From assembly GCA_011053135.1 (NCBI GenBank), contig DRLG01000303.1:1-44471 (forward strand): a DNA stretch of 44,471 nucleotides, written 5' to 3'. Below the pieces are notes generated by a model. It searched no databases, had not been told where the DNA came from, and saw only the letters and a program-made list of their open reading frames with translations. The DNA comes from Chromatiales bacterium (GTDB lineage: Bacteria; Pseudomonadota; Gammaproteobacteria; SZUA-140). Both the position numbers and the translations under genes were made by a program. This document shows, one piece after another, positions 904 to 10,787 of this stretch (position 1 is the stretch's first letter; each line of letters begins with the position of its first letter).

Positions 904-1191
904 TTAGCTGATCAAAACAAGTCGTTTATGCTGCTCAAGAAAACGGTCTCGCTCTGTCTGATCGATAAGCGCATCAGTTTTGTCAGGGATGATGGTTCTT
1001 GAAATCTGGATGCCAACATTACAGGTTTTGCACCAGACGATTTTCCAGCCGAACTCAGAATCTTCAAAACCGAAGTACTGATAATCGAGTCCTGTTGCCC
1101 CACAACAGAGACATGTGCACGTTGCCAGGTCATCATCATTAATCGGCAGGTGCTTTATCCAGTCAAGATAACTGTGCGTTGTCACATTCAT
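904..1191 (-). CDS. Small Cys-rich (zinc-ribbon-like) protein; candidate immunity or accessory partner of the upstream giant toxin
   Basis: 95-aa ORF. Its ATG (1191-1189) overlaps the TGA (1190-1188) of the 3199-aa gene as ATGA, indicating translational coupling. Cys clusters CTCLCCG and WCKTCN lie about 24 residues apart. No family recognised. Confidence 0.55.
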   Translation of the reverse strand: MNVTTHSYLDWIKHLPINDDDLATCTCLCCGATGLDYQYFGFEDSEFGWKIVWCKTCNVGIQISRTIIPDKTDALIDQTERDRFLEQHKRLVLIS

Positions 1192-10100: not shown

Positions 10101-10787
10101 TCGCCGTATCAGCGCCGCTTTGGGTGGTGAGGGCACATAGGGAGTACGAATTGGTGTTAACTTCGGCATGATGGCGACTATCTCATCGCGACCTTTTTTA
10201 GCGTATTCGCCCGTTCTGCGTTGCTGGCCTTGTGCTGCCACATCGCCGCTCCGGCTTACTTCACCTTCACCCTCTCTGCTGGCTTCCTGCTCTTCCTGCG
10301 TTTCTGTCTCTTCCTCAGCATCTTCCTCAGCCTGCTCGCCCGCACCGGCTCTGCTATCTGCTTCTGTCTCTGCGTTTTCTTCGTCGCCGGCGCTTTCGCT
10401 ATCTTCCTCCGTTTCTGCTTCCGATTCCGATTCAGTTTCTGTCTCGTTTTCACTAGCTGCTTCAGTTACAGATGCTGCTTCGCTTCCATCTGTAATCGTA
10501 TCGCTGGTTTCAGAGGATAACGATGAAGTCGGCGCTTCTGAATTGGCGCGGCCATCCAGAGACATGCTCTCCATCTCCTGGCTTAATCGTTCATCGGCTT
10601 CGGCGGTTTGCTGACTGGCCAGTGACAGATTGAGGGTCGCCTGCTCACGTTGTGGCTCACCGCCTAGATAGGCGGGAATGCTCGTTTGATCTGCTGCTGC
10701 TTCCTGCTCGCTGGAACGATGAGCAGACGATGACTCAGTGGTAGAGTCTTCGCCTCTTCTGCGCAGTTCGCTGGCATGATCCGGCAT
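1188..10787 (-). CDS. Giant (3199 aa) multidomain eCIS-associated effector/toxin candidate
   Basis: Uninterrupted 9.6-kb ORF, last large gene of the CIS operon. N-terminal ~190 aa are acidic and low complexity. A hydrophobic hairpin plus Gly-zipper lies at aa ~1469-1572. Three ~86-aa repeats lie at aa ~1885-2115. A degenerate DUF4157-like segment reads VLREEGIHALQ (aa ~2185-2195). A D-x18-ExK (PD-(D/E)xK-like) motif lies at aa 2863-2884. The C-terminus carries an intact zincin motif, LGHERTHVMQ (HExxH at 1344-1358). Confidence 0.8.
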   Translation of the reverse strand: MPDHASELRRRGEDSTTESSSAHRSSEQEAAADQTSIPAYLGGEPQREQATLNLSLASQQTAEADERLSQEMESMSLDGRANSEAPTSSLSSETSDTITDGSEAASVTEAASENETETESESEAETEEDSESAGDEENAETEADSRAGAGEQAEEDAEEETETQEEQEASREGEGEVSRSGDVAAQGQQRRTGEYAKKGRDEIVAIMPKLTPIRTPYVPSPPKAALIRRDEILKRTGSPPEYHHALVRQSAQRTAQAARDAQRRMLFNIGNLGMNTRISIEEMAVEVQGVTAAAVKQINDAVDQSMRDIDLSLAKEQAHITEQNIKTGEELQASRDRIMLEITANLMEGSEEIRQAAEIAEARFNEKIPQAAGYINDIPTSGIAAQLPQPPNPQSTAGGGNQNSEQPAGGGESGAAAQSGNQESTPSYRVMSKAEKRLTHFMDIQSGIISEKSSNVKTYLLSRASPVLEGMAGQEQTRLVTNAGEHATRLSSDANKAQFTTLVLSLTTPVSQHHEQDESQSVDEVSNKSDQQLTETEAAVRSARRIIQNKGKLAKEYADLDMRNTLTKNIRKSGNKTAQGLRSQASSAETALNNSAAQMAEAYRDLVRRLDALLPAEQFLDSRNLLPKLIVARDSAFKLQQQHEKAAQQQADMTLEKMDKIKRDQINSISKAGRDSVNSMEDVVTRTSFDMSMFSSQMTGEMSAGAIQGITAAQEYATRMAEGIIESRDKLDDEGLQQVDAIAVGFLNGAISAAAQSQYGALENFVKEMEKVGDKGSLTKPMMDSRADLERRASAIDNAMPGQSLATAGGLALLSPIAAGVYLYCSDGDENVVIEKLGNLMWPGVLGLEDVFNTIYPSPSLLRPRIRSELGSPEKWHALNLLSTSARVRGYARMSIANYSTGWFDYNRAARESALQGLSQAERDAVAAFNPRLIETTRTNLISGLNEHQGAIATAYLDRNRERAVAARTRESLDKARGQGEWGWIFSAQSAQRRSDEARVTVMANMRGVLQQELAVESAYLPREVIDRSTQRVQSEFASLTDPRRRAASAFSPEDAQAAMTRYATSPHLSAIQGWGSARIERVEMSDDASQYIRDLVRYGPESNEARASRGVFEFRRAQGDSTLGIFDDLSETSQTRLSDAFENRQLATLERQVREARNPRERSRYQRLLDEERGKHRVRMQMMARRLGAPKEIANDPDPAAAERWMADQVGGLFAREDDYVGNRPSHARYGQEMITSGRASLVASVQLATEGAGTHEALLRRAYGDRSRAEIDAANAQWAVENGGENMEEMLGIQRRSWGASDYGLMALSPLAWFATRSPEVSGDLAFELERLSRGNRETDLDHVQYAGLHYNQERVRGAGFLARSSMRGTPEQQNLDGRRDRLAQTILDAARAEAARQGNPDAIAAYERNPGAIFNPDGSIDPVVQALAFSTDGSFLGNTSQLQHYTQSVSLAAESYRNEIDRQEKMLTTGITVLALVASVALMLIPGVNIVAAGIITAVIAGAATIAVKAGMRGERYGWEEAATDVATTAIEAATAGFGGALGGGLGKSGALAGIGEALKGSLGSIGSAVAREAFVSAISSGAQIALQDEVWQDGLDRGLERVLNGAVKGAAVAAVTAGVSEGLTSKLGRSMSPGDLGPSDFSRMQKLGSALGPNGSEIFQESIAELFGSAVGETAGVITDYATGKFEGKFGDALKQIGQAGLRDMVSGTLRAGATSQNKARYRQLLDVARSGEPMSPSDQRALRLAAISAGVMNYDDGPEKIRAEIDAGRELLVRLPQGLREQASSYDLNTLRNIVSMIDAGDLGSQGDRSKFLRDLNDSVPDLDGRALMREMEAAIASLHPADEADAPDTAQQARIRQQLAAGMDPELRNVMDDVRIEGMEYLTEADLRRASEMIARGEFDSATADALFRQARLEKPELSEFAFLRSLADATATSHQAQALKKIQTQQRHSEVMAALSPDGRKVFAGLPAESLKQIKKLLDRESMGTAHEQEALFREAQQRNPELTRAQFDGMLASAVAKVKTEHAVARDQARHKRQQQMSNVPEHLRGTLSVLPEASLVDLHLRQMEGTISPGERVRLEEAALRENPDLDLDTFCRAIDEAVQQGAPIRPTDDESAQMRREMLAAVPAEQRAQLSDVPILVMRPGDFEAFTRSSSGNAVTLILQGEPVIVMREGASPRVLREEGIHALQSKDPRWSERLGALRESDLQRWDELPLAQQMALYRNKIDIEIDAHDRMIDGLAEQLRRSSDPAEQAQLRSELALAQATLSNLQRRHAEVASIGPMQRLQIEAGLLARPQWLDQPARLFSKGEPATGPPPVQKTREELLAEMVSDLTPGGTQATATRKLIDSIDVEQLNRLASLELSPADMRKVLRSHDTAEGVAGMIDQLNQVADVLPADQRTQRLGELVARRDFTELISLLGVTVRSAPDVTSAAQFVAAVLTLRGHHLDVATGINQLLERAGAEQASDFARLMDSIGSEGRQSLINLMGEMRSTFDALKLDNSDSFAAIAGLIRIASSGDVDQRVDLFNRTHNLLSALAELPSSAAHRKVVNHIVDGLISGKDSLAHALDIRAASRLLEKSKSAADALERFTASLSEGGSLTGGDAFQLHLRDKLKEWPDFREKYSDFATMLKDVTKDTLRTATDEMREKQTAALADLEPWFTYITGTDWFSARVKESGRNHGDEARYLLGDIIKSGLRRGTGVNSLDTLRHIMQEMRQKIVEVDGRPKFNEEVKREMARLGFSEEAIAQREKDFDSILAENRAAMGRETPEVHLENLVRQRIEYQRMIDAAEQLAHARYPSDAAARKALINEMTSGLRQKVTETVGEIAATRAMNSDERFKGFYLHSGFEQGIGFDQVWVRFGPDGKVSEIMIVEAKGPGATTQKTRTKGAQMSAEWVARTAAQMIMRGDDTGIGTMIIDALQNGHPPVAGVVIQAKDRSGTAGDISAATGADKSNFRYDLNDLNRHSVIKTTTTDLAQDIQGQISSLDKAHYRLQYDQAETIDLITHARRLKLSDNEIADLLIEGSRISHPIEAKNLKTLMESVASIIVDSTTTGLFRREANTGIYTELKVPMQKRFVLRAALEGGIGLEGLKVRIVRDPELLGKNIFGYTHPNGMIDLYPDAFTNLEDLIKTLGHERTHVMQIEIFGHPNTYGDRMIEQLNLNEIAAHGIEESFWKYYLQNRSGRLMRFE

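Follow-up and report, generated by a model that had tools for sequence, protein, structure and literature searches.

The window analysed here, the whole 44,471-nucleotide (nt) stretch of contig DRLG01000303.1 from a Chromatiales bacterium, carries one long extracellular contractile injection system (eCIS) operon on the minus strand, as annotated with Pfam and NCBIfam. At its 3' end, with an AAA+ ATPase gene close by, lies a giant open reading frame (ORF; 1188..10787, minus strand) that runs as a single frame from ATG to stop and encodes a protein of 3,199 amino acids (aa) and 349.6 kDa. A stop-free run of 3,199 random codons has a chance of ~2e-67, so an ORF of this length cannot arise by chance. 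The single uninterrupted frame that an earlier reading without database searches (hereafter the sequence-only reading) had described is thereby borne out, and an identical protein is on record from a metagenome-assembled genome (MAG) of a Chromatiales bacterium. The gene starts 2 nt past the end of the preceding gene, which encodes a 317-aa protein (p317); at the other end, a 95-aa ORF (904-1191) begins with a 4-nt overlap of its stop codon. The sequence-only reading had taken the giant protein for a toxin cargo, which the comparative evidence supports well; on that evidence, the best reading is that it is an eCIS-associated polymorphic toxin cargo representing a large family.

In a clustered protein database, 16 full-length relatives of 2,943-3,243 aa were identified, with 35-86% identity. 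A profile of aa 2045-2320, built around a conserved region referred to here as the mid-domain (aa 2141-2315), was scored against 1.84 billion representative proteins. At E<=0.001 it matched 408 clusters (50% identity), and 180 at the stricter threshold of E<=1e-30. The best 150 of the 408 clusters are mostly proteins of 2,200-3,400 aa, with the mid-domain at about residues 1,500-2,450. The family spans at least seven phyla. When one genome per species was searched, the mid-domain was found in 38 species, including Cellvibrionaceae (Teredinibacter among them), Hahella, Marinibactrum, Methylococcaceae and Chromatiales, together with Burkholderiales, Rhizobiales, Myxococcota, Acidobacteriota, Gemmatimonadota and Actinomycetota.

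Synteny was assessed by tblastn of the ATPase, p317 and a 550-aa protein of the window against all fetched loci. Wherever a locus includes enough flanking DNA, the giant gene has the ATPase beside it. An ATPase homolog was observed immediately upstream of the giant gene, or of p317, in nearly every locus with upstream DNA, while in two loci where the giant ORF is cut at the locus edge (L022 and L028) the ATPase homolog lies downstream instead. The adjacency of ATPase and giant gene extends across at least five phyla. A 2,244-aa member in a Terriglobales MAG (L032), for instance, is encoded directly after a WHD+AAA ATPase. Three relatives display the same gene order, with genes for proteins of ~565, ~1,200 and ~555 aa followed by the AAA protein (~690 aa), a ~320-aa protein, the giant protein and a small ORF. 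The p317 homolog adjoins the giant gene wherever it was detected, separating it from the ATPase gene in the gammaproteobacterial class and immediately following it in the Burkholderiales/Acidobacteriota class. This pattern of positions points to a co-conserved partner and not to an immunity protein. No family or structure match was obtained for p317 (Pfam, NCBIfam, PHROGs, PDB profile), which is a candidate chaperone, for the membrane hairpin described below, or a candidate loading adaptor.

These arrangements bear on the idea that the protein is a free-standing polymorphic toxin that leaves the cell by another export route and merely sits beside the eCIS operon. Toxin and immunity modules like those described below are indeed common to other delivery systems. 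However, the adjacency to an eCIS AAA+ ATPase in so many phyla, the translational coupling at both ends of the gene, and the lack of a signal peptide or of any known trafficking domain (Rhs, PAAR, VgrG, LXG, TPS) make an independently secreted toxin very improbable.

Along the chain, the giant protein begins with 200 residues of acidic, Ser/Thr-rich sequence (D+E 28%, S+T 23%, hydrophobic 9%, net charge -40), a composition that strongly suggests disorder and agrees with the acidic N-terminus noted in the sequence-only reading. The stretch is variable and gapped, with 15-22% identity to distant homologs. Within it, an IPAY motif at aa 37-40 (10668-10679, minus strand) is conserved, with P38 and Y40 invariant, and may be a short recognition motif for loading. 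By analogy with the disordered loading sequences of Cgo1 and Cgo2, which AlgoCIS carries as cargo, aa 1-200 represent a candidate cargo-loading signal.

The segment from aa 200 to 2315 is conserved along the family, with identities of 35-80% that then collapse. Its best-conserved stretch is aa 1451-1550 (64-80% identity to distant homologs), the region of a transmembrane helical hairpin (aa 1468-1515) whose Kyte-Doolittle hydropathy peaks at 2.43 over 19 residues. An invariant K-x-G-M-R-G-x-R-Y-G-W-E-E motif follows the hairpin, and the Gly/Ala-rich segment after the hairpin (aa 1516-1760) holds 12 of the 22 GxxxG motifs of the protein, where ~6.5 would be expected. The hydrophobic hairpin of the sequence-only reading is thus confirmed, with a Gly-rich segment where it had placed a Gly-zipper. 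Before the hairpin, a GxGT[H/N][E/D] motif of annexin type is kept in 15 of 17 close family members. The Pfam Annexin family was significant in 6 of 18 diverse distant relatives (best E 2.9e-35), and the annexin repeat profile (PF00191) gave no match in the giant protein itself, in the Pfam search or in tiles. One relative of 2,324 aa (P0018) combines annexin with Hint-type domains (PF07591, PF13403) and has the mid-domain in common at 40% identity (E 2e-45).

Tandem helical repeats with a period of ~86-93 aa follow the Gly/Ala-rich segment. A BLASTP self-comparison found nothing, so that profile comparison was needed to see them, and sub-alignments compared with the region gave off-diagonal hhalign probabilities of 83-97%. 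The repeats described in the sequence-only reading are therefore present, with a count of four in the profile self-comparison where three of ~86 aa had been proposed. The last repeat is helical in the AlphaFold2 model of aa 2045-2320, which reached a mean predicted local distance difference test score (pLDDT) of 89.9 and a predicted template modelling score (pTM) of 0.82.

The mid-domain closes the conserved body, and the conservation pattern along the chain makes it the most characteristic conserved domain of the family. In its surroundings, aa 2151-2200 are 68% identical among distant relatives. The motif residues are E2188, E2189, G2190, H2192 and Q2195, within the local sequence REEGIHALQ (aa 2187-2195), and the position of the first His in the motif (EEGIHALQ) is occupied by Glu or Asp in all relatives. 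The predicted order is strand-helix-strand-strand, then the motif helix and a long helical hairpin. This modelled topology resembles that of a zincin in which an acidic residue stands in for the first His. Foldseek searches with this model against PDB and BFVD returned nothing at E<0.08, and zincin-like proteins appeared by name only (3e11_A at E 0.98, IrrE-like, SprT-like). This conserved body, with its mid-domain, hairpin and p317 partner, appears to be undescribed in the literature searched.

The presence of a long helical part with a transmembrane hairpin raises the question of descent from a tape measure protein. The giant protein would then be a homolog of the actinobacterial Tme/Sle1 class of effectors and, as proposed for that class, would sit on the baseplate within the tube and form a membrane channel after ejection. 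The logic of the two is the same, in that an extended helical part with a transmembrane hairpin leads to a C-terminal enzyme that varies, in some cases with an immunity gene downstream. In addition, tape measure proteins appear among the Foldseek matches of the mid-domain model, though below significance (best E 0.17), and one family locus comes from an Actinomycetota MAG. On the other hand, ten 400-aa tiles matched no PHROG tape-measure family, and aa 1-2333 had no tblastn relative in 50,697 phage records, nor in 72,556 plasmid records. As a positive control, the ATPase found 509 plasmid records, 35 of them from Serratia, pADAP not being confirmed among them. Moreover, the gene follows the ATPase at the operon's 3' end and is not upstream of the baseplate or sheath genes, has no adjacent DUF4157 partner gene, and belongs to an operon whose tape-measure position is occupied by a separate gene, that of the 550-aa protein. 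Together, these observations make a tape-measure origin improbable.

Beyond the body, conservation is lost in steps. The region of aa 2350-2850 is weakly conserved, and sequence beyond ~aa 2950 was found only in the three closest relatives. Among 17 close homologs, 13 carry a PD-(D/E)xK module after the linker, most of these ending 55-70 residues past it, while the remaining four have unrelated C-terminal ends. Five proteins extend ~230 residues past the PD-(D/E)xK module, namely the giant protein, its two closest relatives, P0014 and P0015. These extensions begin with a common adaptor and finish in three different end domains. In total, at least five tail types were found among the relatives, a conserved N-terminal part being followed by a variable C-terminal end as in polymorphic toxins. 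As a separate observation, the tails at L003, L010 and L011 contain a GS...DVDIAV motif that looks nucleotidyltransferase-like by eye.

The ORF downstream of the giant gene co-varies with tail type, in the position expected of a putative polymorphic-toxin immunity gene. Five members that end in the PD-(D/E)xK module have in common a downstream ORF of ~240 aa that is Imm49-like: the copy at L018 matches Pfam PF15575 at E 1e-6, and the copy at L001 matches a Pfam-confirmed Imm49 of Thalassolituus at E 1e-7 in BLASTP. Loci L013 and L021 have the same tail type and the same downstream ORF of 131-140 aa, and the window and L008 have the HExxH tail and the 95-aa ORF in common. In the case of the Terriglobales member (L032, 5060-12521), the giant gene is followed by a PoNi immunity gene. 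Next to a Pseudomonadales giant, the following ORF (L009, 14073-14471) gave a sub-threshold DUF6960 match (E 2.9e-5). On this comparative pattern, the giant protein has the design of a polymorphic toxin, in which the body is conserved while the C-terminal end can be exchanged.

The linker that joins the body to the toxin end is predicted to be helical. Its profile (aa ~2307-2740) matches designed helical-repeat proteins in a PDB search (E 3.6e-6), and an AlphaFold2 model covering the last 460 residues shows helices for aa 2740-2845. The module that follows bears a D...ExK motif (GFDQVWV...VEAKG, aa 2861-2885), and its TExxGE, GxGxDQxW and EAKG signatures are invariant across 11 aligned members. 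In the same model, the core is predicted as alpha-beta-beta-beta-alpha-beta with a pLDDT of ~90, and the signatures map to helix 71-104 and strands 125-130 and 136-145, in keeping with the catalytic layout of the PD-(D/E)xK superfamily, which has Glu on the first helix, Asp on strand 2 and (D/E)xK on strand 3. The PD-(D/E)xK-like motif of the sequence-only reading thus lies on a confidently predicted core. The module has no Pfam match and no PDB profile match. Foldseek of the C-terminal model against PDB gave a best E of 0.087 with a three-domain query, which lowers sensitivity; SPARDA entries 9jt2_B and 9vx6, whose nuclease domain we take to be of PD-(D/E)xK type, appeared at a probability of only 0.16-0.30.

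Free-standing homologs of this module were identified in toxin/immunity arrays of Thalassolituus (L046, 1-5800) and Vibrio vulnificus (L048, 1-4800). The arrays also contain Endonuclea_NS_2 with a YezG-like protein, and TNT, and each PD-(D/E)xK homolog is directly followed by Imm49. These occurrences mark the PD-(D/E)xK module as a mobile putative toxin module, and the arrays define it as an unannotated, Imm49-partnered candidate toxin family.

The sole HExxH of the giant protein lies at aa 3144 (HERTHVMQ), 55 residues before the C-terminus, as the sequence-only reading had indicated. The last ~140 aa have relatives at 56-72% identity, in which the motif takes the form H-E-R-x-H-x-x-Q with H3144, E3145 and H3148 invariant, as is E3180 on the next helix. 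The AlphaFold2 model of the last 460 residues predicts, in order, three short strands (363-388), the HExxH helix (396-416) and a helix at 423-451, with a pLDDT of 58-86. As modelled, this is a minimal gluzincin-like layout around a zincin motif. The domain has no Pfam match, including the Tox-MPTase families, and no PDB sequence match.

Homologs of the HExxH domain were found as C-terminal extensions of Hcp/TssD (PF05638) from type VI secretion systems (T6SS), among them P0028, P0029, P0031 and P0032 and, for example, in Citrobacter sp. RHB25-C09, and as small proteins in Cupriavidus and Chromobacterium. The Chromobacterium copy is an orphan; the Rhs/CdiA_C_tRNase gene upstream of it bears a separate toxin tip. 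The toxin module is thus reused by other delivery systems, in Hcp fusions and as an Rhs-adjacent orphan. We also considered whether the Hcp-fused domain is the published T6EC4 of Citrobacter koseri; T6EC4 is Tox-REase-5-like, so it is a different domain.

The 95-aa ORF accompanies the HExxH domain in these settings. In Cupriavidus, the gene next to the HExxH homolog encodes a protein of 95 aa that is 51% identical (E 1e-37) and likewise overlaps it by 4 nt, and homologs of the 95-aa ORF, not called as genes, also lie directly downstream of the HExxH homolog in Citrobacter and in Chromobacterium. The pairing therefore occurs in four independent contexts, three of them outside the eCIS family, in line with the partnership of the 95-aa ORF and the C-terminal toxin suggested in the sequence-only reading. 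The 95-aa protein, which is zinc-ribbon-like, is a very good candidate for the immunity protein of the HExxH domain. Since it carries no signal peptide, the toxin would be expected to act in the cytoplasm; this lack of an export signal, together with a cassette common to interbacterial weapons, makes a cytoplasmic component of bacteria the most likely target. The adaptor is limited to family members that bear an extra C-terminal toxin, and it is where a low-GC (guanine plus cytosine) cassette begins. The adaptor, HExxH domain and 95-aa gene (904-1862) have a GC content of 0.42-0.44, and the rest of the giant gene 0.52-0.59, a contrast that fits recent acquisition by recombination.

With two HExxH-like segments in hand, one degenerate and one intact, the sequence-only reading had proposed that two polymorphic toxins marked by DUF4157 are fused in one protein, the first degenerate and the second consisting of a nuclease and an intact zincin. 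Both segments are HExxHxxQ-like in a beta-rich-then-helix setting. The DUF4157 profile (now eCIS_core, PF13699), however, found none in the whole giant protein at E<=0.1, in ten overlapping 400-aa tiles at E<=10 or in the last 150 aa at E<=1, and neither Pfam, on the whole protein and the tiles, nor PHROGs, on the tiles, gave a credible match to any family. The same library finds a true PF13699 in 2 of 18 diverse relatives (E 1.6e-22), where it is N-terminal in both, with HExxH at aa 164 (P0060) and aa 69 (P0088). The segments of the giant protein, at aa 2141-2315 and 3050-3199, do not occupy that position. An hhalign comparison of the mid-domain with the C-terminal HExxH segment gave 0.2%, and the two were rejected as paralogs. 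Against a DUF4157 profile of the relatives' two sequences, hhalign puts both motifs in register at 0.2% for the mid-domain and 7% for the C-terminal segment; the profile is thin, the 45 fetched loci holding no further DUF4157 sequences, and it does not support either segment as DUF4157. What stands of the degenerate first segment is its motif, REEGIHALQ, and not its similarity to DUF4157. The HExxH domain at the C-terminus likewise had no PF13699 match. Because the mid-domain, with 68% identity around its motif among distant relatives, does not change its relative position across the best 150 of the 408 clusters, the fusion of two toxins fails: the supposed first module is the signature domain of the whole family. 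We regard a pair of fused DUF4157 toxins as highly unlikely.

Table 1. Features of the giant protein and of the eCIS operon in the window, with positions in the window.
Feature	Position (nt)	Strand	Basis or remark
Acidic, Ser/Thr-rich low-complexity N-terminal region, aa 1-200	10188..10787	-	Composition
Conserved N-terminal body, aa 201-1440	6468..10187	-	Conservation; aa 201-300 strongly conserved
Annexin-type repeat, ~aa 1247-1345	6753-7049	-	Single GxGT[H/N][E/D] motif at aa 1253
Transmembrane helical hairpin, aa 1468-1515	6243..6386	-	Two ~20-residue hydrophobic helices, PGVN between
Post-hairpin Gly/Ala-rich segment, aa 1516-1760	5508..6242	-	Conserved; clustered GxxxG; G+A 30%
Four tandem helical repeats, aa ~1775-2140	4368..5465	-	Starts ~1780, 1869, 1962, 2048
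Mid-domain (family signature), aa 2141-2315	3843..4367	-	Invariant [D/E]-E-G-x-H-x-x-Q; ends in QPARLF
Helical linker, aa 2316-2789	2421..3842	-	Weakly conserved, 15-23% identity to distant homologs
PD-(D/E)xK nuclease-like module, aa 2790-2975	1863..2420	-	TExxGE first helix, GxGxDQxW, EAKG, KGxQM..W
Adaptor, aa 2976-3049	1641..1862	-	FRYD...LSD.EI.DL..EGSR...PI; GC 0.42; tail comparisons
HExxH (gluzincin-like) toxin domain, aa 3050-3199	1191..1640	-	H3144-E-R-T-H3148-x-x-Q3151; GC 0.43
95-aa CxxC...CxxC protein	904..1191	-	Two CxxC pairs, no signal peptide; candidate cognate immunity protein
317-aa protein (p317)	10790..11743	-	Co-conserved partner of giant gene
eCIS AAA+ ATPase (Afp15/Alg15-type)	11740..13731	-	Pfam AAA E 2.4e-27; presumed loader of giant cargo
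Three consecutive genes (295, 564, 1,179 aa), CIS13-family N-terminus	15384-21529	-	NCBIfam
Sheath, 725 aa	33786-35963	-	Pfam
Pvc16_N tail terminator	36762-37349	-	Pfam
Two gp19-type tube proteins and one CIS_tube protein		-	Pfam
gpD and gpV spike parts		-	Pfam
gp25, Baseplate_J, P2-I-like protein		-	Pfam

The remaining genes of the operon are collected in Table 1. The three CIS13-type genes (295, 564 and 1,179 aa) probably encode alternative or stacked tail fibres, whose C-terminal parts had no match in NCBIfam or PHROGs. Between the tube genes, a 495-aa gene (31790-33277, minus strand) gave a weak phage tail-sheath match (PHROG E 5.6e-4) and may encode another sheath-like protein in addition to the sheath of 725 aa. 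The eCIS operon is directly preceded, on its upstream side, by unrelated copper/silver efflux genes (CusF-like, CusA/AcrB-like and CusB/HlyD-like; 38219-43290, minus strand). At the other end, no intrinsic terminator was found in a search downstream of the 95-aa ORF. The contig stops ~900 nt beyond this ORF, and the sole gene in that stretch is a tRNA-Leu(CAG) at 33-119 on the plus strand, ~800 nt past the last eCIS operon gene and at the very end of the contig, which may be a genomic island boundary.

Taken together, we consider it likely that the giant ORF encodes a modular effector, carried as cargo by the eCIS of the same operon, with the build of a polymorphic toxin and a toxin that probably acts in the bacterial cytoplasm. 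In the mechanism we propose, the acidic disordered N-terminus would serve as a loading signal, and the neighbouring AAA+ ATPase would thread the unfolded chain into the tube lumen, as in AlgoCIS. Contraction would expel the giant protein into a target cell. There, the transmembrane hairpin, together with the annexin-like element before it and the Gly-rich segment after it, would engage a membrane and bring the C-terminal part to the other side, and processing of the chain may fall to the zincin-like mid-domain. In the bacterial cytoplasm, the modules of nuclease-like and metallopeptidase-like type would then be active, and the 95-aa protein would protect the producer.

Several observations weigh against this reading. 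No known family or solved structure significantly matches any part of the giant protein, so both enzymatic assignments rest on motifs and predicted topology. An Imm49-like gene was searched for in the window and none was found, though none of the family-invariant residues of the PD-(D/E)xK module is lost; members that likewise bear an additional tip after this module also lack an Imm49-like gene. The three fibre genes give no hint of the target type in NCBIfam or PHROGs. The protein is also larger than any cargo shown to be loaded; for comparison, Cgo2 has 1,228 aa, and Afp18, a large cargo loaded in the tube lumen of the antifeeding prophage of Serratia entomophila, has ~2,367 aa. The sequence-only reading had posed the loading of so large a protein as a puzzle, and the puzzle is smaller than claimed: by our own estimate, 350 kDa at 1.21 cubic angstroms per Da occupies ~420 nm3, equivalent at solid packing to ~34 nm of a 4-nm lumen, which is not prohibitive.

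Finally, a hairpin conserved at up to 80% fits a role in the producer's membrane at least as well. The giant protein might not be carried in the tube at all; its hairpin would then sit in the cytoplasmic membrane of the producer, where the protein would anchor or organise the particle or bring about regulated self-lysis or death, as with the intracellular contractile injection system of Streptomyces, and the C-terminal enzymes would act in the producer itself. Conservation is highest in the hairpin and the segment that follows it, the protein is very large, membrane association and action on the producer are known for Streptomyces contractile injection system effectors that have transmembrane helices, and a PD-(D/E)xK module without Imm49 would be tolerable in a cell fated to die. 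Against such a role, the C-terminal modules and downstream ORFs are of interbacterial-weapon type (Hcp, Rhs orphan arrays, Imm49, PoNi), three fibre genes are typical of released particles that bind a target, and a long disordered-type N-terminus next to a loader ATPase matches lumen cargo. We therefore consider producer-side action unlikely.

A bolder version of the cargo reading, which we offer tentatively and hold to be doubtful, is that the ~2,100-aa body is a self-contained membrane-translocation device within the eCIS. After the particle has broken through the outer layers of a Gram-negative target, its annexin-like element, hairpin and Gly-rich segment would insert in the inner membrane and let the C-terminal region through to the cytoplasm, with the invariant [D/E]-E-x-x-H mid-domain cutting the warheads free. 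If true, it would constitute a new phylum-spanning effector platform in which released particles kill bacteria with cytoplasm-acting toxins, and a platform exchanging warhead/immunity cassettes with the T6SS and with Rhs systems.

Eukaryotic hosts are the targets of most eCIS characterised to date. The family described here, with 408 clusters in marine and soil bacteria and with shipworm-symbiont relatives such as Teredinibacter, provides a concrete and widespread candidate for eCIS delivery of cytoplasm-acting toxins into bacteria. It also shows that eCIS and T6SS draw toxin/immunity cassettes from the same pool, and it defines two putative toxin families, one being the HExxH domain and its partner of 95 aa, the other the PD-(D/E)xK module linked to Imm49. 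For annotation, what surveys describe as a very long linker is here a multi-domain body that is conserved and includes both a membrane hairpin and a zincin-like domain whose motif is altered. For engineering, the family may offer a natural platform that takes varied C-terminal warheads and payloads of 350 kDa, which is relevant to programmable eCIS delivery.

Among known systems, AlgoCIS of Algoriphagus machipongonensis is comparable in both cargo and loader. Its cargo proteins consist of a disordered N-terminal loading sequence, an optional DUF4157 and a variable C-terminal domain, and they enter the lumen only with an active AAA+ ATPase, Alg15, probably in unfolded form (PMC8894135; 10.64898/2026.05.27.728243). 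Like Cgo1 and Cgo2, the giant protein is encoded in an eCIS cluster and combines a disordered-type N-terminus, a conserved middle and a variable C-terminal effector, and an Afp15/Alg15-type ATPase is encoded alongside in both cases. In contrast to Cgo1 and Cgo2, it is 2.6-6 times larger, has no PF13699, adds a body of ~2,100 aa with a hairpin, an annexin-type motif, repeats and an E-E-x-x-H domain, and has an immunity candidate adjacent to its C-terminal toxin.

The survey of Geller et al. (2021) described DUF4157-toxin proteins in which linkers of >1,000 aa separate the domain from a distant C-terminal toxin, found annexin enriched in eCIS loci, and reported immunity genes for some toxins as well as antibacterial activity (PMC8213781). 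The present family resembles these toxins in its annexin and in the N-terminal PF13699 carried by some relatives of the giant protein. It differs from them in that the "linker" is a conserved multi-domain body and that the giant protein itself has no DUF4157.

The Tme/Sle1 effectors of Streptomyces contractile injection systems have transmembrane helices, go to membranes and carry exchangeable C-terminal domains; in Tme this domain is a nuclease, and a Sle1-type protein of Micromonospora combines a toxin with a downstream immunity gene (PMC11126660, PMC13277306). The giant protein is similarly large and helix-rich, with a transmembrane hairpin and an exchangeable C-terminal domain. Unlike Tme/Sle1, it has no detectable tape-measure homology, its gene occupies a different position without a DUF4157 partner gene, and its system has fibres and occurs mainly in Gram-negative bacteria.

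Afp18 offers a parallel in being the product of a very large terminal eCIS operon gene and in being carried as cargo. It targets insects and is not known to have an immunity gene. The giant protein differs from it in that aa 1-2333 had no tblastn match among the plasmid records.

The closest parallels for the toxin end are the T6SS, Rhs, PoNe-PoNi and Imm49 toxins, which use the same mobile cassettes as the giant protein (the HExxH domain with the 95-aa gene, and the PD-(D/E)xK module). T6SS and other polymorphic effectors likewise join a conserved delivery part to a variable toxin with a downstream immunity gene. In the family described here, the giant eCIS-linked body replaces Hcp, VgrG, PAAR or Rhs, and delivery would be by a released particle and not by a cell-anchored T6SS.

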